Shown here: one piece after another, positions 3,275 through 26,840 of the stretch
Position numbering within the stretch: position 1 is the first letter of the stretch
Layout of the letters: the number at the start of each line of letters is the position of its first letter
IMG/VR virus record: IMGVR_UViG_3300031555_003626
Location: 169,330-233,329 of that record
Source: a virus
Taxonomy: Duplodnaviria; Caudoviricetes
Reading direction: 5' to 3' (one strand)
DNA: 64,000 nucleotides
Made by a program: the position numbers and the translations under genes
The notes under the pieces: model-generated
The model's input: the letters and a program-made list of their open reading frames with translations, nothing else
Told to the model about the DNA's origin: nothing
The model's database searches: none

Positions 3275-6200
3275 TGGCTTATGAATTAACTTATTCATTA
3301 ATAAATAATAAAACAGAATATGAAATATCTGGATATACGGGCACTCCTGATGTTGTTGATATTCCTAGTACATATAATGGAAAATCTGTAACCTCAATCG
3401 GCTCTGATGCGTTCTATGAATGCACAAGCCTTACGAGCGTTGTTATCCCTGACAGCGTAACCTCAATCAAGCAGGCTGCGTTCATGCATTGCACGAGTCT
3501 TACAAGCATTACAATCCCTGATAGTGTAACCTCAATCGGCGGTTTTGTATTCTCTGGATGCACGAGCCTTAAATATAATGAATATGACAATGCTTATTAT
3601 CTCGGTAATAAAAATAACCTGTACAGATGGTTGATAGAAGCGAAAAATACAAGTATAACTTCTGTTAATATTCATGAGAATACTAAATTTATCGGCTATG
3701 ATGCGTTCGAATACTGCAGGAGCCTTACGAGTGTGACTATTCCTGACAGTGTAACTAGCATCGGTTCTGATGCGTTCTATTATTGCGACAGCCTTACGAG
3801 TGTTACAATCCCTGACAGTGTAACCACAATCGGCTCTAATGTGTTCGCTTATTGCACTAGCCTTACGAGCGTGACTATCAGTAATAGTCTAACCTCAATC
3901 GGTAGTTCTATGTTCAAACATTGTGACAAGCTTACGAGCGTAACTATCCCCGATAGTGTAACCACAATCAGCTCTTCTGCGTTCTTGGATTGCACGAGCC
4001 TTACAAGCGTAACTATCCCCAATAATGTAACCTCAATCGGCAATTATGTGTTCGATAATTGCACGAGCCTAAAATACAATGAATATGACAATGCTTATTA
4101 TCTCGGTAACAAAAATAACCCTTACGTATTGTTAATAAAAGCGAAGAATAAAAGTATAACTTCTGTTAACATTCATGATAATACTAAAATTATCTATGCT
4201 TCTGCATTCTCAGGTTGCATAAGCCTTAAGAGCATTACAATCCCTGATAATGTAAACTCAATCTGTGATTATGCGTTCGAATTTTGCACAAAACTTAAGA
4301 GCGTAAATATTCCTGATAGTGTAACCACCATTGGCAATCGCGCGTTCTCTGATTGCGATAGCCTTAACGCAGTATATATCACCGACCTTGTCGCTTGGTA
4401 TAATATAAGCTTTGGTAGTTATCTTGCAAATCCTCTTAATTGCGCAAATAATCTTTATCTCAACGGACAGCTTGTAACTGAGGTTGTAATTCCCGAAGGT
4501 ATAACATCTATCAACTCTTCTGTGTTCTATAATTGCACAAGCCTTATGAAAGTGACTATCCCCAACAGTGTCACTATCATTAACACTTATGCCTTCTCAG
4601 GTTGCACGAACCTTATGAGTGTGACTTTACTAAGTACAACTCCGCCTTCATTAAGTTCCAATAGTTTTAATAATATATCTGAAGATGTTAAATTCTATTG
4701 TGTTTCTTCAGTATTAGATACATATAAAACATCTACTAACTGGAATACTTATGCAGATAATTTTGTAACAGATGACTTAAGATTATATTTCATTATGAAT
4801 GCAAACTCTCAGAAGAATTATGTTAGAAATTATGTTGATTTAAAAGCATCTAAGTATGATGGTAGCGGAGAAAATTCTATTGTTGTTGGTGAAGGTTCAA
4901 ATGCTATTGGAGGATCTTCTACTGCATTAGGATATTATGTTACTAGTGGCGCTAAAGCTTATGATTTTGATATTACAAAATCTTTAGATTATGCTGAAAA
5001 CCAACCAGAAGAAGATATTACAAATAATGTAGGACGTTATTACTTAACAAGTAATGAAGGATTAACAGATCTTGCAGCAGGAGATGTATATTCAGTAATC
5101 CTTAGCGGTAACTGGGATTTCCAAGGAACTATTGCAGGTTATAACGATGATATTAATGACTGCTATATTATAGTAGATAATTATATAAAGCCAACAGCTA
5201 CTGATTATTATCTAAAAGATGAGAATGGTAATGATATCAAATATCGTAATACAAAAGTTACTACAAGCTCTTATATATTAATTGTAGACAAACCCTTAAT
5301 TGGAAACAAAGTAATTGGAACAGGTACAGTTGCTTTAGGTTATTCAAACAAGGCAGAAGGTGTTTGTTCTGCTAGTATGGGTTATAATAACACTAGCGCA
5401 GGTAAATATAGCTTCAGTGCTGGACGAGACAATAAAGCTGGATACTGTGCTGCAGTATTTGGGCAACAATCAGAAGCATTAGGACACAATAGCTTTGCAA
5501 GTGGTGTACGTGCAAAAGCTCATGCTCATTACAGCTCAGCAATTGGTTATAATAATACTATTCAAAGTGGTGCTACTTATGGTGTTTGTCTTGGTACAGG
5601 ACTTGTTGTGACAGACGAAGCACAAACAGTTGTTGGTAGATATAATAAAGAAGCCGACTCTAAAGGTTGTGTATTTGTAGTAGGCGGTGGCGAAGGTACT
5701 GGAGGCAGATCTAAAACTGCTTTATCTGTAACGCCTGCTGGAGATCTCAAAATAGCTGGTAGCTTTACAAACAATGGAGATGCCCAAATTAAAGGTACTT
5801 TCAACGCTATGGATCAATTAGTGGTTGAACAGGGCATCACTACTTTAACAGATGCAGGACAGTTAAATGTGAATGGAGCTACTATTTTAAATGGCACTTT
5901 AACTGCAAATAATATAGTAACGATTGAAGGTAATACAACTTTAAATGGTACTATAACTGCTAATGGCTATTTAAATGCTGAAAGTGGTGCAACTCTAAAA
6001 GGTACAACTAATATAAATGGTACTCTTGTAGTATCTGGAGAGATAACGACAGGTGGTAAAAAAGTATATCGTATTCCAACTACTGGTGATTTAAAAAATA
6101 CAGCTGCTTCAATGATTTTAGGAACAAGGCCTTTAAAAGATAGTGAAGGCAATGTTACTGGTTATGCAGAAAGTTACTTCAGTGTAGCCGCTAGTGGTAC

Positions 6201-6333
6201 TAGTTCAAATTCTATTGCACAACGTGATAGCACAGGCTGTATACGAGTTGCTGAGCCTACTTTATCTAATCATACTGCGACAAAGAAGTATGTTGATGAT
6301 TTAATTAAATCAGCACTAAGTAAGAGTTATTAA
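3274..6333 (+). CDS. BspA-type leucine-rich repeat (LRR_5) receptor-binding protein with C-terminal YadA-like repeats
   Basis: Many 23-aa repeats 'CTSLTSVTIPDSVTSIGxxAF', then Hep/Hag-like repeats and 'HTATKKYVD'. Confidence 0.8.
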   Translation: MAYELTYSLINNKTEYEISGYTGTPDVVDIPSTYNGKSVTSIGSDAFYECTSLTSVVIPDSVTSIKQAAFMHCTSLTSITIPDSVTSIGGFVFSGCTSLKYNEYDNAYYLGNKNNLYRWLIEAKNTSITSVNIHENTKFIGYDAFEYCRSLTSVTIPDSVTSIGSDAFYYCDSLTSVTIPDSVTTIGSNVFAYCTSLTSVTISNSLTSIGSSMFKHCDKLTSVTIPDSVTTISSSAFLDCTSLTSVTIPNNVTSIGNYVFDNCTSLKYNEYDNAYYLGNKNNPYVLLIKAKNKSITSVNIHDNTKIIYASAFSGCISLKSITIPDNVNSICDYAFEFCTKLKSVNIPDSVTTIGNRAFSDCDSLNAVYITDLVAWYNISFGSYLANPLNCANNLYLNGQLVTEVVIPEGITSINSSVFYNCTSLMKVTIPNSVTIINTYAFSGCTNLMSVTLLSTTPPSLSSNSFNNISEDVKFYCVSSVLDTYKTSTNWNTYADNFVTDDLRLYFIMNANSQKNYVRNYVDLKASKYDGSGENSIVVGEGSNAIGGSSTALGYYVTSGAKAYDFDITKSLDYAENQPEEDITNNVGRYYLTSNEGLTDLAAGDVYSVILSGNWDFQGTIAGYNDDINDCYIIVDNYIKPTATDYYLKDENGNDIKYRNTKVTTSSYILIVDKPLIGNKVIGTGTVALGYSNKAEGVCSASMGYNNTSAGKYSFSAGRDNKAGYCAAVFGQQSEALGHNSFASGVRAKAHAHYSSAIGYNNTIQSGATYGVCLGTGLVVTDEAQTVVGRYNKEADSKGCVFVVGGGEGTGGRSKTALSVTPAGDLKIAGSFTNNGDAQIKGTFNAMDQLVVEQGITTLTDAGQLNVNGATILNGTLTANNIVTIEGNTTLNGTITANGYLNAESGATLKGTTNINGTLVVSGEITTGGKKVYRIPTTGDLKNTAASMILGTRPLKDSEGNVTGYAESYFSVAASGTSSNSIAQRDSTGCIRVAEPTLSNHTATKKYVDDLIKSALSKSY

Positions 6334-6351
6334 GATGAAAGGAAACAACAT

Positions 6352-7317
6352 ATGGCTAAAAATGATAACTTATCAGATTTCTTTACAGAAATAATTGAAG
6401 TTATTCATAATAAAGGGGTAACTCAAAAGATTTATCCATATCAGATTCCTGATGCAATTCGTAAATGTAAAGATTCAAGTTATGAAATATTGGAGGATGA
6501 CAGTAAAATGTTTCCTCCAATAGAGGATTTATTACAGGATATTGCAAACATTTTAAAGAATATCTTAGGTATTTCTGGAGAAATAAATGCACAAGATTAT
6601 GCTAGTGTAATATCAGGCATTGCATCTTCTTACACACTTACTTTTACGAATGCATGTGAAGGTATGTATTTATCTGTTAATGGTACTCGTTATACTGATA
6701 ATGCTGTGATAGATGTATCAGCAGACGACTATATTGCAGTAGGAGCTATAGATACTAGTAATGCTTACAATGCATCATTGTTCCAAGCTTGTAATATAGA
6801 TGTGGATGGGGGCTTATTAGCTAATGGTGGAGAGTATACCGAGTATGAACTAGGTGAATATAGAGAAAGCGGTGGAGCTCTACAAGTAGAAACAACTTAT
6901 GTTCAAACATATACTAGTTTTTATGTTGAAGGCGACTGCTCAATTACACTTACACCTAAAGAAAAAAATACTGTTACTATAAATTATCCTACAGGTTGTC
7001 CAGACAGCTTACGTATTTATGCTCATACTGCAGCTGATCCAAAATATTCTGATTGGCATATCTTTGTAGATACTGTAAATAATAATTCTTATGGTTCAGG
7101 TAGCTCTAGTTATGCTTTCAATAGTGATGATAATTTTATAACTATTTTAAGTAATGCTTACTGGCAACCAGTAGATAGTATTATCGATTCAATATATGGG
7201 TTGGATTTAGTTTATATAAGAGCTCATGTTGATTCTGGTAATGGAGAGATACAAGATATAATGGAACGCACATACAGAATAACACAGACTGATGTAGTAA
7301 TTAATCTAACTAATTAA
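6352..7317 (+). CDS. Hypothetical virion-associated protein
   Basis: Long ORF with RBS in tail module; beta-rich C-terminus. Confidence 0.5.
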   Translation: MAKNDNLSDFFTEIIEVIHNKGVTQKIYPYQIPDAIRKCKDSSYEILEDDSKMFPPIEDLLQDIANILKNILGISGEINAQDYASVISGIASSYTLTFTNACEGMYLSVNGTRYTDNAVIDVSADDYIAVGAIDTSNAYNASLFQACNIDVDGGLLANGGEYTEYELGEYRESGGALQVETTYVQTYTSFYVEGDCSITLTPKEKNTVTINYPTGCPDSLRIYAHTAADPKYSDWHIFVDTVNNNSYGSGSSSYAFNSDDNFITILSNAYWQPVDSIIDSIYGLDLVYIRAHVDSGNGEIQDIMERTYRITQTDVVINLTN

Positions 7318-7396
7318 ATAAAATAAAGCTCAGGCTAGATTTATTAAAAATATCTCCAGTCTGAGTTTTATTTTTATGCATGTTAAATTCTTTATT

Positions 7397-7411
7397 TGCT
7401 AAATTAATTAG
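7397..7411 (+). promoter_or_regulatory. Phage-specific promoter motif (T)GCTAAATT-AT-rich, representative copy
   Basis: GCTAAATT recurs in intergenic positions near 7397, 11209, 19668, 21744, 24705, 27181, 27579, 28042, 28893, 37816, 42184, 53792, 61007, 63739. Confidence 0.65.
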
Positions 7412-7501
7412 AGATCAAAAGCTAATCAAAATTTAAATATGAGATAGATAGCTAATTTTCATATTTATAACTAAAAGATATTTTATTGAAAGGAATTTAT
7501 T

Positions 7502-8209
7502 ATGGCAAAATTAGATATAACAGCTGAACAGATACAATCTACGACTAATATGATAACTTCTAGCGCAGCCGTTTCTGAATGGAATACTGATTTAAAGTAT
7601 CCAAGTACTAAAGCTACTTTAAATAAAGCACATCCTGTTGGAAGCATTTTGATTACCAGTGTTAACTACTCTACAACCGACACAAGGCATCCAGATAATA
7701 GTATTGGTGGTACTTGGGAATTAGTTGACAAAGAATACCGAGTTGCAGCTACTGAATCAATTACTTGGACACCTTACGATTCTAAGGCTACATTATCCAG
7801 AGGAATTGTTACGTGTTCAAATCATATGGTCTATTTAACAATGGAACTTACTGCCAACTCTACTATTTCGCCCAGCCCAGACGGCCAAATAACAGGTAAG
7901 CTAGGTCAAATTAACCCTAACAGTATTGGGGCTATTTATGATGTATCACATCCAAATCCTTTAGCATTCAATACTACTACTGATTTTACCCTTGCTTATG
8001 CTGTTACAGGGGCAGGGGCTACTGCTGAAAGCTGTATTATTGTAGCTAATTTGAGTACAACTGGCGAGGTTAATATCCGGGCCATACTTAATGCGAATAA
8101 ACAGCTAGTCTCAGGTACAAAAATATATTTAAGTATATCGGTACCAATGAAATCTACTAATATGGCTGATAGCTTTTGTGATAAATTTTATTGGAAGCGC
8201 ACTGCTTAA
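7502..8209 (+). CDS. Tail/baseplate-associated protein (gp10 C-terminal-like)
   Basis: 'HPVGSILIT...P...IGGTWE' and C-terminal 'YWKRTA', motifs typical of tail-fibre/baseplate gp10-like domains. Confidence 0.55.
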   Translation: MAKLDITAEQIQSTTNMITSSAAVSEWNTDLKYPSTKATLNKAHPVGSILITSVNYSTTDTRHPDNSIGGTWELVDKEYRVAATESITWTPYDSKATLSRGIVTCSNHMVYLTMELTANSTISPSPDGQITGKLGQINPNSIGAIYDVSHPNPLAFNTTTDFTLAYAVTGAGATAESCIIVANLSTTGEVNIRAILNANKQLVSGTKIYLSISVPMKSTNMADSFCDKFYWKRTA

Positions 8210-8229
8210 CCTAATTATTAGGAAAGAAG

Positions 8230-9087
8230 GTGATTTTTATCGCTAGCTTAACGTTAGAAGTTTTAGATGGAAGCACCATTGCTTCGACTGAAATTTATGG
8301 AGCTAATAAAAAAACTTATATTAATATCGGCTCCGGAAATGTATTTAAACTACAGTGGGTGACCAGTGATATTATTGTTGACCACTATGATTTAGTAATT
8401 AAACGACATAAACCAGAAGTGAATGTCTATGACGTTATTTTTGATAAGAACATTGGGTTAGTTAATGAGTTTTATGTAGATTCTGCTATATTGCCTGACT
8501 TCACAATGCCATATGAGACTTCTATTTATTTAGTCGCTTATGGAAAACAGGGAAGTGTACTTACTTCTAATGTAGTAAATCCATATGTTTGTAAAGGCTG
8601 TGGTACATACGTAAAAGTACAGCCAGATGGCTATGAACAGCCAATCATGAAACGCGCAGTGGCTTTAGTCAAAACTAAACCAGATCGTATTACTTTAACT
8701 ACTGTAGAAGAAGGAGAAGCTTCTGTTACTTCGAGTGCTGTGTCTGCTAATTATGCTGAAGCGGTACTACGAGATAGTGAAGGTTATATTTTACGAGATA
8801 TAACTAAAAAAGTTCTTTTTTCTGTGCCTGCAACAACTGTTGAAATGGAATTAGCAGACATTACTGGTCAACTTTTGGTAGACGATACTGGACGAACTTT
8901 ATTTGCAGAGGTTTCTAATTTACTTGAAAATCCAGATGGCTGGACTATTATGCAGGAAATTTATACAAAAGATGACGCCAATAACTGGCGTATTAATGAT
9001 ATTGAATACGAAGTACTTGTAGATAAAACCGGTGAAATTATTTATACTCTTAACGATGGTAAATATGAGCCTGTTTATGTACTATAA
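8230..9087 (+). CDS. Hypothetical structural protein
   Basis: ORF in tail operon. Confidence 0.45.
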   Translation: MIFIASLTLEVLDGSTIASTEIYGANKKTYINIGSGNVFKLQWVTSDIIVDHYDLVIKRHKPEVNVYDVIFDKNIGLVNEFYVDSAILPDFTMPYETSIYLVAYGKQGSVLTSNVVNPYVCKGCGTYVKVQPDGYEQPIMKRAVALVKTKPDRITLTTVEEGEASVTSSAVSANYAEAVLRDSEGYILRDITKKVLFSVPATTVEMELADITGQLLVDDTGRTLFAEVSNLLENPDGWTIMQEIYTKDDANNWRINDIEYEVLVDKTGEIIYTLNDGKYEPVYVL

Positions 9088-9114
9088 GCTAGTTTATTTA
9101 AGGAGAGATATAAC

Positions 9115-11157
9115 ATGTCTTATAAATTAAAACACACAGCAGAGGCTATTGACGATAAGCTAAGCTTAATTAATAAAAATAAAAATCTTTTGCCTTATCC
9201 TTACGAAGAAGAGCCTGGTGGGGTTGGCCTTATTGATGTAGGTGATGGCTCGTTTCTAACAAATACAGATTTTCCGGAAGCAGGCTATGAATTTTTACTT
9301 CATACTGTTGTACTACCTGGAGGTAGAAAATATAAAATTAGCCTCGATATTGCAGATTTTATAGACGAATATGCTATGACAGTGAATCCAGGTTTCTCAC
9401 TAATAGTTAGAAATAAGTCAGGTGCAGACCTTGACTTAAATAATGAGGTACTTGACCTTAGTGCTGAAACAGAAGAGACATCTATTAGTGTATTTCTATA
9501 TGTCCCAGCGGGCGCTAGAGCTAATTTAATAGTTAAACCTCAAATAGAAGAGGGCGAAGAGCAGACGGCTTGGGTACCCTACATGAAAGATATAGCTAAT
9601 TATGTGGATGAGCGTTTTAATAGCACCAATGTTAAAATTAAAGCTATTGCTGAAGCTGTTGCTAATAATGCCGGCAGTAGCGAGTATACCGGCCCTGAAA
9701 ACATAGAAGACGGTACTACTACTGGAATTCAGCAAATTCAAGATCAAGAATCTGGAGTTACTGCAGGTTACTTTAACTTTACTAATAAAAACCAACAAGC
9801 AACTAAGCATGATAATAGCTTGACTGGCGAAATTGAATATGGTGCCACAGGTGAGTTCGCAGTAGCATTTGGAGGTAAATCTGCGGCAATTGGAAAACGT
9901 TCTATGGCTGTAGGAACAACCACTATAGCTAAAGGAAAATATTCATTTGCTTGTGGTGATAATAGCGTTACTTTAGGTAATGACTCTTTTGCAGCTAACT
10001 ATCAAACAACTGCCAAGGGTCAAGCTTCAGCTGCTTTTGGTTCTGGTACAATTTCTGAAGGAAGTGCTTCCGTTGCTATGGGTAAGGAAACTCATGCTAA
10101 AGGAGAATATTCGTTCGCTACAGGATATCAGTCTAAGTCTAACAGTCAGTCTTCAGCGGCTATAGGCGCTGGAGCTGTTACTTCGTCTGAAATCAACGGT
10201 CAGGTCGTTGTGGGTAGATACAACAGATACGATACACCTGCAAGCTCTCAATCTGTGTTTATTGTTGGTTCTGGTGGGAGCGATACTGCACGTGAAACTG
10301 CAATGTCAATCGATATTTACGGAGATATGTGGAAGGGCTCAAACCCAAGTGCGCTAGATCGCTACATAACTGCAGGAGAAGCATTTAGACTTCCTGAATC
10401 GGTTAGTGATAAAGCAGACGGTACTTATATTCCTTGTTATGGGGTCACTAGCGGTAAGATGACTTCGGGCAAAGAATCACCAAATTCTTTACAGTTAGCG
10501 ACGAGTTGGGCTAAAGGAAACACCCTAGTAGGTAGAGATGAAAACGGTGCGATTAATATAGGAACACCTACAGCCCCCGGTCATGCAGCTACTAAGCAGT
10601 ATGTTGATAACTCTCATATAGCTAAGATAAAAGAAACGCTGACTCAGTTATTTGACCGTGATGAATTTTATGAAGTGCAGTCTACCGGTACTATAACAGT
10701 TAGATTAACTTGTAACTCACAGGAGTCTTTCGGCAGTGATACGTGGCTTGATTGCAATCATGACCTAGAGGTGTTTTTTGATGGAGATGCAAATAAAACA
10801 ACGCTTCCACTACCTAAAGGTACTTTGATAAGCATAACAGGAAAATCGGAGACGGGTGATGCACACTATCTTTTAAATAATAGTACAGTAACTGTTTATT
10901 TAGAAGACTCTGATTATTCCGGAGATGGTGGGCCAGGCCATCTAATTGGGTTTGATGCTTTTACACCAAATAGCTCTGAGACTATAAATAAAACTTACCG
11001 TGACGCGACAAGTGACCACGTTTTATATGCGGATACAGGCGAGTCCTCAATGGTTTGGGACAGCACATGTTTTGAAACCACTGAGGAAAGTCAAGAAGTT
11101 ACTTTAACCTACACGCTTGCGAAAAATAAATATCTTGAGGCATTAGAAACTTTATAA
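9115..11157 (+). CDS. Tail fibre/adhesin with YadA-like head repeats (paralogue of 1743..3044)
   Basis: Shares 'YGATG.A.AFGGKS.A.GKRSMAVGTTTIAKG.YSFA.GDNSV.LGNDS' block with 1743 ORF; 'HAATKQYVD'. Confidence 0.7.
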   Translation: MSYKLKHTAEAIDDKLSLINKNKNLLPYPYEEEPGGVGLIDVGDGSFLTNTDFPEAGYEFLLHTVVLPGGRKYKISLDIADFIDEYAMTVNPGFSLIVRNKSGADLDLNNEVLDLSAETEETSISVFLYVPAGARANLIVKPQIEEGEEQTAWVPYMKDIANYVDERFNSTNVKIKAIAEAVANNAGSSEYTGPENIEDGTTTGIQQIQDQESGVTAGYFNFTNKNQQATKHDNSLTGEIEYGATGEFAVAFGGKSAAIGKRSMAVGTTTIAKGKYSFACGDNSVTLGNDSFAANYQTTAKGQASAAFGSGTISEGSASVAMGKETHAKGEYSFATGYQSKSNSQSSAAIGAGAVTSSEINGQVVVGRYNRYDTPASSQSVFIVGSGGSDTARETAMSIDIYGDMWKGSNPSALDRYITAGEAFRLPESVSDKADGTYIPCYGVTSGKMTSGKESPNSLQLATSWAKGNTLVGRDENGAINIGTPTAPGHAATKQYVDNSHIAKIKETLTQLFDRDEFYEVQSTGTITVRLTCNSQESFGSDTWLDCNHDLEVFFDGDANKTTLPLPKGTLISITGKSETGDAHYLLNNSTVTVYLEDSDYSGDGGPGHLIGFDAFTPNSSETINKTYRDATSDHVLYADTGESSMVWDSTCFETTEESQEVTLTYTLAKNKYLEALETL

Positions 11158-11293
11158 TTAAATAAACTAAAGCTTAGATTTATTTCCAGTCTAAGCTTTA
11201 TTTTTATCTGCTAAATTATTAGAGATAAATGCAGTTAAATTCAGAAAAAGAGTTTAACTTAGAAAAAATATAAAGAAGGGAATTTTATATAAT

Positions 11294-12244
11294 ATGTCAA
11301 TTAAACTAGATAAAAGTATTAGCATAGATGGTACGCTCTATGATGTAACAGCTGTAGAGGCTGATAAAGCAGTAGAGGCTGATAAAGTTGTTAATAAATT
11401 AACTATAAATGCACCTGGAAAAGATCCCGAGTACTTTGATGGTAGTGCAAACAAAGAGATAACAATACCTGCTGTTACTTATAGTAATAGTGCAAAAACA
11501 ATTAATGCTTTAGGCGGAATTGGCCCGAATACCTCATTTGACAATGAGCCTATTACAAAGGTACTTGATATGCTTTTGTACCCTTATGTTGCCCCTGTTA
11601 TTGGAGATACGAGTTCTTCGCCACACAATGGTGGTGTATTCGAAAATGGAAGCGTTCAAAAAATTGCGTCTGTTACTACTTCTATTGTAAAGAAATCAGA
11701 AAGTATTTCTAAAATAGAGCTATTTCACGGAAATACACTGCTAGGAACGCGTGAGGATCTTCCAGATGGTGGCAATATTAAGTTCGAAGTCCTAGATCTA
11801 GGTGTAGAAATCGATAACGATAAAGATACTCCAAAATATCTTACAATTAAAGTAACAGACAGTAAGGGTAACTCTGTTACAGAAAACACTGGCACTTTTA
11901 GTTTTGTTTATCCTTATTATTATGGCGCAGTTGAGGCTAACACTACAATTTCTGAAATTTCTGAAGATGTTGTAAAAGGTCTTTATTGTAGCATTCATGA
12001 TAGAGTTAATAGAACTGTGCCATTTACGCTTAATAATCAAAAAGTAGTTTTTGCCTATCCAAAAATTTATGGTACATTACACTCTATTATAAATCAAAAT
12101 AACTATGAGGTTATTACTACTTTTACACGTAAAGAGCTTTACATAACAGGCTTGGATAAAACAGCACATCCTTATTATGTATATGTTTCAAATGGAGCTT
12201 CAACAGTCTCTAATTTTAAGTATACTTTTAACTATTTAAAGTAA
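11294..12244 (+). CDS. Hypothetical virion protein (Ig/beta-rich)
   Basis: 'LDMLLYPYVAP', 'FVYPYYYG', 'FAYPK.YG.L..I' motifs common in phage structural proteins. Confidence 0.5.
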   Translation: MSIKLDKSISIDGTLYDVTAVEADKAVEADKVVNKLTINAPGKDPEYFDGSANKEITIPAVTYSNSAKTINALGGIGPNTSFDNEPITKVLDMLLYPYVAPVIGDTSSSPHNGGVFENGSVQKIASVTTSIVKKSESISKIELFHGNTLLGTREDLPDGGNIKFEVLDLGVEIDNDKDTPKYLTIKVTDSKGNSVTENTGTFSFVYPYYYGAVEANTTISEISEDVVKGLYCSIHDRVNRTVPFTLNNQKVVFAYPKIYGTLHSIINQNNYEVITTFTRKELYITGLDKTAHPYYVYVSNGASTVSNFKYTFNYLK

Positions 12245-12256
12245 AGGAGTTAAATA

Positions 12257-12640
12257 ATGGCAATATTTGATAAAATTTCTGGTATTCCTGCTGATAATGG
12301 TTTTAAGTATCAGGCAGAAGCTCCGCTTGATGCTCGTTTAGTAGTAGACTACTACAGCGAATTAGCTGAACTTGCTGAGGGACACGGTGCTTACATCGGT
12401 ATGTTAGTTTATGTAAAAAGTGAGACGACTACGGCAGGTGGTATCACTTTTCCTAAAGGTTATTATTTTTATGATGGTGTCATTTGGGCTGAATTTAAAG
12501 GAGCTGGCACTTCTAATGCAGAGGGTGCTGATAAAGTGCGAGTAACTTTGGATGATGGTAGTAAACCATATGCTACTATCACAATTAGTGCAGAGGAGCC
12601 TGATGGCGGCAACATTGGAGATATTTGGTTTAAATACTAA
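12257..12640 (+). CDS. Hypothetical tail-associated protein
   Basis: 'PLDAR', 'AYIGMLVYV', C-terminal 'GDIWFK'. Confidence 0.5.
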   Translation: MAIFDKISGIPADNGFKYQAEAPLDARLVVDYYSELAELAEGHGAYIGMLVYVKSETTTAGGITFPKGYYFYDGVIWAEFKGAGTSNAEGADKVRVTLDDGSKPYATITISAEEPDGGNIGDIWFKY

Positions 12641-12669
12641 TTAGCCAAATAACACTAAAGGAGTTTAAA

Positions 12670-13044
12670 ATGGCTAAAAATATTATTAAACTTAACAGAG
12701 GTGACTCATTTGAATTTAAAGTGAGTATTCCAGATAAAGAAAATACTAATAAAAATTATATTTTAACTAATTTTGATGTTGTTTATTTTGCCTTGTTATA
12801 TCCATATCAGCCATTTGCCGACGCATTTATGGTTAAAGGCTACACTATAGAAGACCAAAATAAAGAAACCGGCGAAATAGTTATAAAGTTAGTACCAAAT
12901 GATACTAGATGTCTTGCTCCAGGTATTTATTATTACACTGTTAAACTGCAAAGAGGCGGCACCTTGGAAGTTATAAATGACTTTGATGAGCCTGACGAAG
13001 TTAGAACAATAATTGATAGAACAAAATTTATTGTAAACGATTAA
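12670..13044 (+). CDS. BppU-N-like tail/baseplate protein
   Basis: 'IKLNRGDS', 'L.P.DT..L..G.YYY.V.L' pattern. Confidence 0.5.
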   Translation: MAKNIIKLNRGDSFEFKVSIPDKENTNKNYILTNFDVVYFALLYPYQPFADAFMVKGYTIEDQNKETGEIVIKLVPNDTRCLAPGIYYYTVKLQRGGTLEVINDFDEPDEVRTIIDRTKFIVND

Positions 13045-13245
13045 ATTTCAAAACTTTTTATCGTATATATTAATATATTAATTAATAATGTATATAATAT
13101 TATAATAATATATTAAGTATATTATATATTTATTTAAGAACGTAAGTTAATTTCTTACGTTCTTTTTATTTTATAGTAAAATATTACAAATCATGCTGTA
13201 TTATATATGTAGTAAATAAAAAAAATTATTTTAGGAGAATTTAAA

Positions 13246-13617
13246 ATGAGAAACTACGAGACAAAGATTTATGATTACATTGATAAGAAGACAGGAGCAC
13301 ATGTAGTAAAAGCTACTACGATTTATGCAGGCCAAATGGTAAGTGCTTGCTCAAAGTGTGACCCTAATGATACTTTTAATCTCGATTTTGGTACCGCAGT
13401 AGCTCTTAAGCGTCTCGACCTTAAGATAGCTAATAAGCGAGCAGCAAGCATGAGAAATTACGCAAAATTCTGTAAAATGAACCTTGACTTCATTGAAATT
13501 GAAAAGCGTCGTGTTAAGAAGTCTATGGAGAGGGCCGAAATTGCTGTTCTTGATCGCAGAGTTGAGATTAAGGCTTTTGAAAAAGAGCTCGCAGAACTTA
13601 TTGCAACTACAAAATAA
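13246..13617 (+). CDS. Hypothetical phage protein
   Basis: 'KCDPNDTF..DFG..AL.R' motif seen in phage proteins; promoter and RBS upstream. Confidence 0.55.
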   Translation: MRNYETKIYDYIDKKTGAHVVKATTIYAGQMVSACSKCDPNDTFNLDFGTAVALKRLDLKIANKRAASMRNYAKFCKMNLDFIEIEKRRVKKSMERAEIAVLDRRVEIKAFEKELAELIATTK

Positions 13618-13656
13618 GAAATTTCCTACATATTTATTATATAAGGAGCTATACAG

Positions 13657-14085
13657 ATGATTTTACGAATTACTGTCGGCGACAATGACTTTACAGAAGA
13701 GCTTGAACAATTTGCTGAAGACCCCGAAGGTAGTGCTTATCTTTTAAAGGTAGCTAAGCTTGAAAATACTTCTTTAACTCAAGATGAAAAGCTTGCACTT
13801 TTTAAACGCAAGGAACGCTTTAGAGAACTATTTTATAATACAGAAAAATATACTCCTGAGCTTTCTGCTGAACTTTGTGAAATGGTTAAACAGAATTGGG
13901 AGGATTTTGTAAATCATATTATGCGCGACCACGACTACTGGAATGAAGATGATAAAATAAGACTTAGAGAATATCTTATCAGAGACTTTAAAGTAAAGTT
14001 TCAAAAGAGCCTTACACCTAAGTGGGAAAATGGTGAAGTAGTTTACATTTGTTGCGGCTATTATAATAAACACTGGACATTTTAA
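13657..14085 (+). CDS. Hypothetical protein
   Basis: AGGAG RBS, operon context. Confidence 0.5.
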   Translation: MILRITVGDNDFTEELEQFAEDPEGSAYLLKVAKLENTSLTQDEKLALFKRKERFRELFYNTEKYTPELSAELCEMVKQNWEDFVNHIMRDHDYWNEDDKIRLREYLIRDFKVKFQKSLTPKWENGEVVYICCGYYNKHWTF

Positions 14086-14107
14086 AATTACATAGGAGGA
14101 ACTTAAT

Positions 14108-14365
14108 ATGACTTTTTTGGCAATTATTCAAATTATTTATTTAGCAATTAACCTTTTTGGCTTAGGAGTAAGCATTTACTTTATTTGTGGTACGACCGAT
14201 GATTTTCCTATTGTATCTAAATTGTTTAGTTTTATTGCAAGGCACTTTGGAAAAGTAGCCTTTATTATTACAGGTATTTTACTCACTATCTTGTTTTTGC
14301 CTACTATTGCTCTTACAGCTGCCTTTATTACTTTCATGTGGCTTTGGGGCACATATTGGGATTAA
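14108..14365 (+). CDS. Small membrane protein (2 TM)
   Basis: Two hydrophobic segments; AGGAGG RBS. Confidence 0.55.
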   Translation: MTFLAIIQIIYLAINLFGLGVSIYFICGTTDDFPIVSKLFSFIARHFGKVAFIITGILLTILFLPTIALTAAFITFMWLWGTYWD

Positions 14366-14377
14366 GGAGTACTTATT

Positions 14378-14674
14378 ATGTTAGATACATTATTAGTATT
14401 TTGGATATTCTTTAACGTAATATCTACAGTAGCAATAGAAGTTGTGTGCTTTTCAAGTGCTGAACATTTTGACAAGATTGATATTCTTTTATACCCCCTA
14501 TTAATAAGGACTCTACGAGCAAAGCTAAATATTGTTGGAACCGTTATAGTTACAATATTAGTTTCCATTCTTTGTTGTCTGGCGATTATTGCTTATTTTG
14601 TACTTTTAGCCCTCTTTGCTTTAAGCGGCTTACTAGTAAAATGTTTTCTTTGTATTTTTAAGAGAAAAGATTAA
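14378..14674 (+). CDS. Small membrane protein
   Basis: Hydrophobic segments; RBS; similar layout to preceding ORF. Confidence 0.55.
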   Translation: MLDTLLVFWIFFNVISTVAIEVVCFSSAEHFDKIDILLYPLLIRTLRAKLNIVGTVIVTILVSILCCLAIIAYFVLLALFALSGLLVKCFLCIFKRKD

Positions 14675-14700
14675 ATAATGTTAAATATAAGGAGTAAATT

Positions 14701-14964
14701 ATGAATAACGATACAACACTTAGTAGCTTTCTTGAAGATAGACTTTCTTATGAGCTGCCTGAAGACGATGATTTCAATATTGCAGGCCTGGCTGAAGACC
14801 TTGCTTATAGTCTTAAAATTAATGGTTATTGTTCTGACCCTTATTTTGAATATGCTAAGGCTCTTATATGTCCTATCAATAAGAAACGCAAAAAATATTG
14901 TGGTTGTACCACTTGTGAAAGTCATGAGTTTTGTTTAATGCTACGTAAGGAAGGTTACGTATAA
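14701..14964 (+). CDS. Hypothetical Cys-rich protein
   Basis: RBS; C-terminal Cys cluster. Confidence 0.5.
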   Translation: MNNDTTLSSFLEDRLSYELPEDDDFNIAGLAEDLAYSLKINGYCSDPYFEYAKALICPINKKRKKYCGCTTCESHEFCLMLRKEGYV

Positions 14965-16456: not shown

Positions 16457-17383
16457 ATGGCTAAGTTGATTATTTTATGTGGGCTTCCTGGAAGTGGAAA
16501 GAGCTATTATGCTGCCCAGCTATGGCGAAGAGAAAACACCTTTGATGAGCCTACTGCAGTAGTACACTCTTCAGATGCTATAAGAAAAGAACTTTTCGGC
16601 GATGCAGGCTCGCAGGAAAATAATGCTCTTGTATTTGAGACTATGCATAAGAGAGTAAAGGACGACCTTAGAGCAGGTAAGACTGTAATTTATGATGCAA
16701 CTAATATTACTCGAAAGTCTCGTCGTGGAATAATCAATATGACTACTAAAGACGATATTGTTGAGTGCCATATTGTTTGGGCGCCTGTTGATACTTGTAT
16801 TAAGCGAGATGCCAAGCGCGAGCGCCACGTAGGTAGAGAAGTAATTGATAAGATGATTCGTCGTTGGCAGAGCCCACATAAGTCTGAAGGTTTTACTTGT
16901 ATCGATGTTATCTGCTCAGACCCTAACTTTGATCAGACTAAGTACGTAGCAATGCAGGCTGACCAAATGCATATACCCCATGACAACCCCCATCACACTC
17001 TTGGTGTTTGGGATCATTGTATGCAGGCTTATTACTATCTTTGCCAGCAGCCTAATATCAATGATGACCTGAAGACTGCTACAATGTGGCATGATATCGG
17101 AAAGCCTTATACTAAATCGTGGCATATCGATAAAGTAAACGGAGCAGTAGATTATTCACACGCTCATTATTATGATCATCATTGTGTTGGCGGCTATCTT
17201 GCTTACGGACTTTTCTTACATAAGGATTTTGATGAGGAAGATGTAGACTTTATGTGTTGGGTGAGCTGGCTTATCTGCAATCACATGGAGCCTTTCTTTA
17301 ACTCTCATTGGTATAGAGAACTTCCTGAGCACTTGAAGCAGCCTATTGATATATTGCATGCCGCTGACGTTTCTGCACATTAA
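16457..17383 (+). CDS. Polynucleotide kinase (AAA_33 P-loop) fused to HD phosphohydrolase; probable RNA end-healing enzyme
   Basis: Walker A 'GLPGSGKS', 'SSDAIRKEL', 'DATN', then 'HH...H', 'HDIGKP', 'HY..H', 'H.AD..AH' HD motifs. Confidence 0.8.
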   Translation: MAKLIILCGLPGSGKSYYAAQLWRRENTFDEPTAVVHSSDAIRKELFGDAGSQENNALVFETMHKRVKDDLRAGKTVIYDATNITRKSRRGIINMTTKDDIVECHIVWAPVDTCIKRDAKRERHVGREVIDKMIRRWQSPHKSEGFTCIDVICSDPNFDQTKYVAMQADQMHIPHDNPHHTLGVWDHCMQAYYYLCQQPNINDDLKTATMWHDIGKPYTKSWHIDKVNGAVDYSHAHYYDHHCVGGYLAYGLFLHKDFDEEDVDFMCWVSWLICNHMEPFFNSHWYRELPEHLKQPIDILHAADVSAH

Positions 17384-24741: not shown

Positions 24742-25218
24742 ATGCGTACTGATTTAATTAATAAAAAAGAATTAATTTTAGAATGGATTGCCGAGGAACT
24801 TCCTAAAAGTGAGATGGCAAAACGTCTGGGTTGTAAACAAGAGACTCTTAATGCTTATTTAGTTAAAATGGGTATTACATATGTGGGTCAGCAGGCTAAA
24901 AAAGGTCAACAAAAGGGGCCTAATAAGTATAAAGATTCTTCTTACTATACTAAAATTGGCGGCCCAAGGATTCACTCTACTGTTCTTAGACTAAAGTTAA
25001 TTCGTGATGGTATTAAGGAAGATAGATGTGAACGTTGTGGTAATTCTCATTGGTTAGGCATTAAGCTTCCTTTAGAATTACATCATAAAGACGGTAACCA
25101 TTATAATAATGAATTAACAAATTTAGAAATTCTTTGTCCAAATTGCCATGCTGTTTCTGGGGATAACGCTGGAGCAGCTGTTGGAAACTATATAACATAT
25201 GCGGAAGTGACGGAATAG
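24742..25218 (+). CDS. HNH homing endonuclease
   Basis: 'CERCG...LELHHKDGNHYNN..NLEILCPNCHA'; N-terminal HTH-like segment. Confidence 0.85.
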   Translation: MRTDLINKKELILEWIAEELPKSEMAKRLGCKQETLNAYLVKMGITYVGQQAKKGQQKGPNKYKDSSYYTKIGGPRIHSTVLRLKLIRDGIKEDRCERCGNSHWLGIKLPLELHHKDGNHYNNELTNLEILCPNCHAVSGDNAGAAVGNYITYAEVTE

Positions 25219-25670: not shown

Positions 25671-25746
25671 GGCTCCGTAGTCAAGTTGGTCAAGACACGG
25701 CCCTTTCAAGGCTGAGGCGGGAGTTCGAACCTCCCCGGAGTCACCA
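25671..25746 (+). tRNA. tRNA-Glu(UUC)
   Basis: Loop CTTTCAA; ACCA. Confidence 0.9.
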
Positions 25747-25803
25747 TAAAAAATTATAAAATTTAAATTAAAATTTTAAAAAATATATTGTATAATATAT
25801 TAT

Positions 25804-26678
25804 ACGGGCCTGACCGATAACTTCCCGTAAGGGAATGAAAGAGGTAGACTGACAAGACCTCGCTGTGATGAGCAGTACCTCAGGCAATGTGTGACGGGAC
25901 CTGTAAGAATTGAAAAGATTCTTACGAATATGCTAACCCCATGTTCTAACTTATCAATGATGAAATGAAAAGAGTTTAGTTGAGGGTCAACTGACTGAGC
26001 TATTCTCGCTCTCGCAAGGAGCTGGTTTCAACGCAAAAGGATTTGATGAGGTAAGGTAAGCTACAGGAAGTAAAATAGTTCGAGATTTAGCAGTCAAGGG
26101 CGACTTCCATTTATATCTGCTATGGTGGATATAAGAAATGTAAGTACAATGCGACGGAAAGCATTGAAGGCGGGTAGCATTCTTGCATTCAAAAGGTGTG
26201 AGAACTACAACAATAGTCTGTCTTCTGTCAAACTCAACTTAGCGTGGGTTGGAATCCCACCCGGTGTGCCAATTTATCTTTTAGAGATAGTTCGCACCTA
26301 TCTCATTATATACACCGGTAGCTCAGTGCTAGAGCGGCTGTGATAGGAAAACAGTGTCATGAGTAAAAACCTATTGTTGGAAACAAAGAAAAGTGTCTTA
26401 AGCCCACAGTGGTAAGCAATGTGGGATACATGGTGTCACAAGCATTATGTATTTGATTGAAACGAATCTATAGAGGCGTAGCAACTTCGAACAGCCCGCA
26501 AGGTTGATAGTGGAGTGATAATCGAGTAATTGTTTCCGTAAAGGCGAACGCAAGCCTGGAGCCCTTGTGCTGGGGTGACGAATTGCAGGCATGAGCGGTA
26601 CTTCCCAAAAGGAAGTGGAAATGTGACTAAAAAATAAGGTCATTAAGCCGTAGCAACTGTAAGGTGTATTCTCAGCCT
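25804..26678 (+). ncRNA. Giant structured ncRNA (~875 nt, GOLLD-like) with permuted tRNA-like linker
   Basis: Starts after TGTATAATAT promoter; many GNRA-capped hairpins; GAGGTA/TACCTC and GGCTG/CAGCC pairings; no credible ORF; in phage tRNA cluster. GOLLD identity is from recollection, not from a search. Confidence 0.55.
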
Positions 26679-26764
26679 TTTATTTATCTTACTATTTAAT
26701 ACTAATTGTTCCGAAAGGCGCTCTAAGGCAGGGATGAAATGCCCCTGTCAATTAGTATTTTTAT

Positions 26765-26840
26765 GCTTCCTTCCTCTAGCGGTCAAGGAGTTCCGGTTCT
26801 CAGCCGGGCAACAAGAGTTCGAATCTCTTAGGAAGTACCA
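26765..26840 (+). tRNA. tRNA-Glu(CUC)
   Basis: CCGG-TTCTCAG-CCGG; GCTTCCT/AGGAAGT-A-CCA. Confidence 0.8.

Follow-up and report, generated by a model that had tools for sequence, protein, structure and literature searches.

GOLLD RNAs form RNA-only cages, and the chief pointer to what they do is that they occur in tRNA clusters and can have tRNAs embedded in them. We asked what kind of RNA it is that, in the tRNA cluster of an uncultured gut phage, carries every element of a tRNA in rotated order, and what would become of its acceptor end. The window, by which we mean the whole stretch of DNA analysed, is 64 kb long and forms the final stretch of a 233,329-bp IMG/VR virus record; positions below are those of the window unless another record is named, and the features of the RNA lie on its plus strand. 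Positions 4846-14836 of the record (G000:C1) recur at its end (223344-233329) over approximately 10 kb with 95.8% identity. Terminal repeats of great length, a mixture of strains or an artefact of assembly could each account for this, so the true genome may be smaller than 233 kb.

A GOLLD RNA between two tRNA-Glu genes

A dense tRNA cluster occupies 20.2-27.5 kb of the window, and the tract under study lies within it between tRNA-Glu(ttc) (25671-25746) and tRNA-Glu(ctc) (26765-26840), with no credible gene inside. The sequence-only reading had proposed a GOLLD-like giant RNA in a phage tRNA cluster and had named a search with the Rfam GOLLD model as its check, and both the identity and the setting were borne out. 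cmscan aligned 26165-26678 with the full Rfam GOLLD model (RF02032, positions 1-416) at 156.3 bits (E = 7e-42), against a curated cut-off of 150 bits and with a model that describes only the conserved 3' half of GOLLD. The helices and pseudoknot of the 3' domain are kept through compensatory change, as seen in the model alignment and with RNAalifold, and the large size of the tract (~875 nt), its less conserved 5' domain and its place in a virus record near tRNA genes likewise agree with membership of the family.

Using a degenerate pattern and a 17-mer anchor, we found nine related copies that are 75-97% identical, giving ten copies with that of the window. Four come from IMG/VR (L258, L291, L293 and L295), four from metagenomes (L266, L268, L278 and L280), and one, L331 (JAZQYX010000049.1), from a 159-kb contig in the bin of an Acutalibacteraceae (Clostridia) MAG, which is a weak hint at the host group unless the phage contig was mis-binned. 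L331 was the one true homolog among 40 contigs matched by the 17-mer anchor, the other 39 being apparent chance matches, and a search pairing the pattern of a T loop with G56 with CCA returned mostly ordinary tRNAs. Six of the homologs scored 141.8-162.6 bits against the Rfam GOLLD model. Where flanks are available the homologs lie in tRNA clusters, several of them between the same two tRNA-Glu genes.

Conservation among the nine homologs starts at approximately 25804, after a promoter-like site, and stops at 26678 together with the Rfam model, so the limits originally drawn for the RNA are sound and the ends of the transcript can be placed provisionally at those two positions (25804-26678, ~875 nt). 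The promoter-like site (25768-25796) consists of a -35 box TTAAAA (25768-25773), a 17-nt spacer and a -10 box TATAAT (25791-25796), matches 10 of 12 positions in a consensus scan, and has its -10 box kept in close homologs. The variable 5' domain (25804-26164) lies outside the Rfam model, is conserved in the homologs and contains covarying hairpins (for example, columns 115-137 of alignment A1). It is followed by the first hairpin of the model (26165-26226, model positions 1-62 in the cmscan alignment), the linker, and the 3' domain (26379-26678 by the same alignment), which includes the pseudoknot and the terminal hairpin P27 (26663-26665 with 26675-26677), whose middle pair is G-C, A-U or C-G among homologs. 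RNAalifold predicted 239 pairs from the homolog alignment, 27 of them with changes on both sides. We rejected two mechanically called open reading frames, 26122-26343 on the plus strand and 26398-26643 on the minus strand, because the homologs carry 1-nt and 5-nt length changes within the first and because RNA pairing accounts for the whole tract that covers both.

Several other elements of the cluster were recorded alongside the RNA. The interval between its 3' end and tRNA-Glu(ctc) holds a long hairpin with branches (ACTAATTG...CAATTAGT) and, after it, a T run (26697-26760); the element is conserved with changes in L258 and may act as a terminator or represent another small RNA. The Rfam tRNA model gave matches of 134-196 nt, corresponding to tRNA genes that contain large inserts, at 20257-20408, 21482-21615, 22118-22313 and 22532-22691. 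A 158-aa open reading frame at 24742-25218 has weak matches to HNH endonucleases, below the cut-off; mycobacterial tRNA clusters with GOLLD carry an HNH gene too (PMC6582537).

The distribution of the RNA is patchy. A blastn search of GenBank phages with the RNA found no match, and close phage relatives, identified through a neighbouring 668-aa protein (47-79% identity), have tRNA clusters and no GOLLD in the loci and five whole records inspected, so GOLLD is an accessory element in this phage group. Approximately 125 further IMG/VR loci carry the GOLLD 3'-terminal motif, 64 of them confirmed by nhmmer. Ordinary tRNAs occur in the GOLLD linker of L007, L016, L151, L160 and L193, approximately 280-400 nt from the GOLLD 3' end, and the permuted module described below was found at none of the ~125 loci with either a regular-expression scan or a covariance model of the module (R1). 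The remaining R1 matches were tRNA dimers (for example, L219 and L201) with mismatched acceptor pairs, and were set aside.

A rotated tRNA in a closed linker

In the cmscan alignment the module appears as a large insertion in the unstructured linker of the GOLLD model. The linker is closed by an 8-bp helix predicted by RNAalifold (26209-26216 with 26371-26378), which is paired in 100% of nine sequences and has two both-side changes, both in the L295 lineage; judged by this pairing, the linker is not a free tether. Within it, the elements run in the order variable loop, T arm, 3' acceptor strand, G, CCA, spacer, 5' acceptor strand, D arm and anticodon-like hairpin. Every element of a tRNA is present, but in a rotated order in which the chain is open after the anticodon-arm equivalent and before the variable loop.

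The variable-loop equivalent is TTAGC (26239-26243), with C26243 as position 48 of the Levitt pair 15-48, and is followed by a T arm GTGGG/TTGGAAT/CCCAC (26244-26260) that has G at position 56 and is defined by sequence and covariation. The 3' acceptor strand (26261-26271) comprises CCGGTGT (26261-26267), the discriminator G (26268) and CCA (26269-26271), and makes seven of seven pairs with 26312-26318. The spacer (26272-26311, 40 nt) contains a covarying hairpin GAGATAG/CTATCTC with loop TTCGCAC (26284-26304), so that the acceptor stem is closed by a loop of 44 nt. The segment 26312-26335 then supplies the 5' acceptor strand ACACCGG (26312-26318), U8 and A9 (TA), and a D arm GCTC/AGTGCTA/GAGC (26321-26335) with C19. 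A single G joins the D arm to a closed anticodon-like hairpin (26337-26355), in which a covarying 5-bp stem, GCTGT/ACAGT, encloses a 9-nt loop. All sequence elements that the sequence-only reading had listed between 26244 and 26335 were found where it had put them, and its central claim of a permuted tRNA in the linker holds, with a perfect 7-bp acceptor stem, an encoded CCA and covariation that extends to tertiary pairs.

Several tests spoke against a chance arrangement. A strict scan for permuted tRNAs, run in both orientations over the whole 233-kb genome, gave three matches with TA and a canonical D arm, namely the GOLLD module and two loop-closed modules at 19.7-19.9 kb. Neither Rfam nor ARAGORN calls a tRNA at the module in genomic order, where there is no contiguous cloverleaf as in the tRNA family (RF00005); once un-permuted, the construct is called a tRNA by ARAGORN at default settings, nominally tRNA-Pro(agg), and has the four arms and the tertiary pairs 8-14, 15-48, 18-55 and 19-56. 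Folded by itself with ViennaRNA, the 118-nt module has the cloverleaf together with the spacer hairpin as its minimum-energy structure (-33.6 kcal/mol), and RNAalifold predicted the same arms from the alignment alone. Comparison with the tRNAs of the window led us to reject the module as a recent copy of any of them.

Across nine aligned module sequences, 30 named pairs are 99.3% paired and ten show changes on both sides, much of this covariation stemming from few lineages. Ten both-side changes were reached in 0 of 500 shuffles, controls with slid partners gave 0-2, and smaller sequence sets gave the same picture. The changes are spread over the acceptor stem (two), T stem (one), anticodon-like stem (two), spacer hairpin (three) and tertiary contacts (two). 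One acceptor pair is A-U, G-C or C-G and another C-G or G-C, and the T-stem change occurs in L331. The elbow pair 19-56 is C:G in six sequences, including the window, and G:C in three (L291, L295 and L331); that is, the unusual G56 of the window T loop is matched by C19 in the D loop, and the three others combine G19 with the usual C56. At the Levitt pair 15-48, eight sequences have G:C and L331 has A:U. Since these coordinated changes include positions that come into contact only once the L shape has formed, they provide strong comparative evidence that the domain adopts an L-shaped tRNA fold, and the pattern of substitution indicates that this tRNA-like domain is under selection.

The swapped elbow pair also occurs elsewhere. 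Many ordinary phage tRNAs have the G56 T loop (TTGGAAT) together with a D loop reading ..TGC.. in place of ..TGG.., among them, in IMG/VR, L105:1341-1445, L106, L088, L109 and L118, which suggests that the C19:G56 swap is recurrent in phage tRNAs. To our knowledge no such recurrence has been described.

The covariation bears directly on whether the module might be a decaying relic, the two leftover halves of tandem linker tRNA genes with no present role. Permuted genes are usually taken to have arisen by tandem duplication, and ordinary tRNAs do lie in the linkers of five other GOLLD loci. Against it, ten pairs between or within the supposed halves have changed on both sides and stayed paired, acceptor and tertiary pairs included. 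Independent relics would not co-vary, and we regard a relic as very improbable.

At the anticodon-like end, our analysis departed from the sequence-only reading, which had paired the GGCTG after the D arm (26336-26340) with the terminal CAGCC of the RNA. This pairing is broken once and nowhere changed on both sides, and two covarying helices compete with it, the local hairpin 26337-26341/26351-26355 and P27. An open anticodon stem between CAAC (26235-26238) and GUUG (26337-26340) was also rejected, having a C.A mismatch in the window and failing in L295 and L331. The local closed hairpin, on the other hand, forms in all copies, with two both-side changes and one G-U/G-C change, and L295 and L331 differ there in sequence yet still pair. 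The loop that it leaves is 9-13 nt long rather than the seven bases of a tRNA anticodon loop with U33: those of L295 and L331 are unrelated, at 13 and 10 nt, and position 33 is A in two copies. A partner sought for the GGAA of this loop yielded one candidate, CUUCC at 26107-26111, which is already paired locally and covaries there.

These loops weigh against a true permuted tRNA gene, one whose product would be circularised or religated into a decoding tRNA as in Cyanidioschyzon. Such a product would explain why ARAGORN labels the un-permuted construct tRNA-Pro(agg), a label that is nominal only, and the phage has enzymes that could be enlisted for it: a T4 Rnl1-type RNA ligase (G000:C1:131999-132607, L296; PF09511, 48 bits) and a P-loop kinase resembling polynucleotide kinase (window 16457-17383; AAA_33, 90 bits), which by their domain matches suggest a tRNA-repair pair. 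The phage genome yielded neither RtcB nor a CCA-adding enzyme. Apart from the 9-nt loop left by the covarying stem, however, the break between anticodon-arm equivalent and variable loop has approximately 800 nt of GOLLD intervening, and the module has no bulge-helix-bulge motif. A decoding tRNA is thus hardly credible here.

Fate of the acceptor end

A 7-bp acceptor stem, U at -1, G73 and CCA are cleavage determinants of RNase P, some of them also named in work on YrlA RNAs. In the module, each of the ten copies has an acceptor stem of exactly 7 bp, and U at -1 (26311), A at +1, G73 and the unpaired CCA (GCCA) are invariant, in homologs that are all at least 75% identical and in which the invariance of short motifs is therefore weak evidence. 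The AU-rich flanks of the spacer vary in sequence and in length through indels while GCCA, U-1 and A+1 stay the same. There is a precedent in the YrlA RNA of Mycobacterium smegmatis, which has a 7-bp acceptor stem and which RNase P cleaves in vivo as well as in vitro, leaving a 5' half that carries CCA, whereas YrlA RNAs with shorter acceptor stems are not cut (PMC4201824). From the stem length, U-1, A+1, G73 and the unpaired CCA, together with this precedent, we regard a cut by RNase P at 26311/26312 as likelier than any other single outcome, and we put at roughly one in two (about 0.5) the reading that this GOLLD is made as an RNA of ~875 nt with a permuted tRNA in its linker and that the nick yields two pieces that are held together.

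The proposed course of events would be as follows. The GOLLD RNA would be transcribed from its own promoter-like site within the tRNA gene cluster and, in this subfamily of ten copies so far, the permuted tRNA domain sits in the helix-closed linker between the 5' and 3' domains. Host RNase P would recognise the stack of acceptor and T arm, the elbow, U-1, G73 and CCA, and would cut between U26311 and A26312. The 5' piece would then run from 25804 to 26311 (at most 508 nt), or be trimmed back towards the CCA at 26271, and the 3' piece would run from 26312 to 26678 (367 nt). Both pieces would stay joined through the acceptor helix (predicted -10.9 kcal/mol) and the tRNA fold, the predicted two-chain fold having -29.3 kcal/mol. 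By analogy with solved GOLLD cages, each protomer may show one tRNA-like domain to the cage interior, and such a display may bind or titrate a factor that recognises tRNA.

The spacer complicates this picture. It had been taken for filler to be discarded, but its hairpin, with a stem of 7-8 bp, has three compensatory changes and a largely conserved loop that reads T(T/A)(C/A)GCAC in all copies; because the hairpin is conserved through compensatory changes, the spacer is not mere filler. Were the segment merely excised, selection on the hairpin would not be expected, and such selection agrees equally well with an uncut RNA. The hairpin may shield the 3' end made by the cut, direct processing, or work in an RNA that is never cut. 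If the last, the domain would be an uncut tRNA mimic, covalently closed, with the CCA loop and the hairpin as part of the working structure, and would either act as a rigid L-shaped building block or, inside the cage, offer a binding site to a tRNA-recognising protein, the ribosome or another RNA. The helix that closes the linker is in keeping with such a mimic, as are the YrlA RNAs tested, most of which stay uncut, including S. Typhimurium YrlA and D. radiodurans Yrn1 (PMC4201824), and a mycobacterial GOLLD that holds a pseudo-tRNA and from which no separate pseudo-tRNA product was detected (PMC6582537). What the mimic leaves unexplained is that the 7-bp stem, U-1, G73 and unpaired CCA are kept in ten copies though the flanks of the spacer change, and we rate it a serious possibility at somewhat under even odds.

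The sequence-only reading had gone further than a nick. It had RNase P and a 3' activity excise the whole spacer and the freed CCA aminoacylated, in the manner of two-piece tmRNA. The gene order is indeed that of permuted tmRNA genes, and the CCA is encoded directly after G73. Most other features point away from it. Synthetases recognise identity elements such as G3:U70, a long variable arm or the anticodon loop, and those that most synthetases use are missing here. Pair 3-70 is A-U, G-C or C-G and never G:U, there is no long variable arm, and the loop of 9-13 nt lacks a conserved U33 and is no conserved 7-nt anticodon loop, so that aminoacylation of the module is unlikely as judged from its sequence, and the description of the end as chargeable found no support. 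ARAGORN, which searches for tmRNA too, finds none here, and no tag reading frame is present. The conserved spacer hairpin speaks against simple removal and the phage has no recognisable gene for a CCA-adding enzyme, although the YrlA of M. smegmatis does gain a CCA end (PMC4201824). Taken as a whole, excision followed by charging is improbable.

The linker makes the tRNA clue to GOLLD more precise. Selection keeps its tRNA shape, tertiary pairs included, in a topology that is unable to yield a free tRNA; since the shape is selected and a free tRNA is impossible, the tethered tRNA fold inside the cage itself seems to matter. This variant also gives GOLLD a testable link to tRNA-recognising enzymes, with one RNase P bond predicted and the halves staying together. 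A tentative and rather unlikely extension is that the subfamily forms a two-piece RNA cage with at least ten free tRNA-like acceptor ends inside, one per protomer, that act as substrates or decoys for enzymes of the tRNA 3' end or elbow. Candidate targets of such a display would be synthetases, CCA-modifying toxins and other tRNA-targeting defences. Were it true, this would be the first concrete biochemical role for GOLLD.

Relation to known systems

GOLLD itself, tRNAs embedded in it and YrlA-type mimics are already known; of a permuted, covarying tRNA domain in a GOLLD linker there was no case in the literature searched. Two-piece tmRNA, from permuted ssrA genes, has its 3' tRNA-like half with the CCA upstream of the 5' half and loses the intervening segment. 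Compared with it, the window module draws no tmRNA call, has neither G3:U70 nor a tag frame, and has full D and anticodon-like arms. The permuted tRNA genes of Cyanidioschyzon merolae give decoding tRNAs through a circular intermediate and the eukaryotic/archaeal splicing machinery. They share with the module the order of 3' half first, but the host of this phage is bacterial, the module has no conserved anticodon loop, and its ends run into a giant RNA.

Within its own family, the RNA can be set beside the env-38 and S. agalactiae GOLLDs, for which cryo-EM gave cages of 10-14 chains with the variable linker facing inward, and whose authors note that linkers inside the cage sometimes hold tRNAs (10.1101/2024.12.08.627333, PMC12990946); the homo-oligomeric cage has been shown for those two GOLLDs, the window GOLLD being known from its sequence. 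GOLLD RNAs with an ordinary tRNA or pseudo-tRNA in linker J13/15 share with it the family, the tRNA-cluster setting and the position in the linker. The tRNA of the window differs in being permuted, in being joined at the junction of variable loop and anticodon stem rather than at the acceptor ends, and in having its acceptor end closed by the loop with the CCA and the hairpin. An ordinary linker tRNA is tied by its acceptor ends, and processing would release the tRNA and split the GOLLD halves; here, processing would nick the RNA instead, with the acceptor-T-arm helix and the elbow exposed.

In the tRNA-like domain of YrlA (RF02553), T arm, closed acceptor stem and D arm follow one another as they do in the window module. 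The Rfam YrlA model aligns these three elements at 27.2 bits (E = 3.5e-4), below its cut-off of 69, and its outer stems are mismatched. Unlike YrlA, the module has no Ro60-binding terminal stem and no adjacent Ro60 (TROVE) gene: its flanks are GOLLD domains, and the neighbouring 668-aa protein is without a Pfam match. It also keeps a closed anticodon-like hairpin of its own, resides in GOLLD as host RNA, and has a 44-nt acceptor loop with a conserved hairpin where that of YrlA has a few bases.

Stand-alone permuted tRNA-like modules lie in the window at 19750-19827, 19916-19998 and 20043-20122, and related phages have them at L020:3897-3971 and L021/L022:12393-12471. They have short closed acceptor loops, some with ACCA in the loop, score 32-41 bits against the module model, and adjoin the 668-aa protein. 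From sequence and arrangement they look like YrlA-type mimics without a recognisable Ro60, and by the same comparison this phage group uses the permuted tRNA design repeatedly. The YrlA of M. smegmatis shares with the GOLLD module both the topology and the 7-bp acceptor stem (PMC4201824). Through the permuted module, GOLLD is connected with the YrlA class of tRNA mimics, a class that this phage also has as RNAs in their own right.
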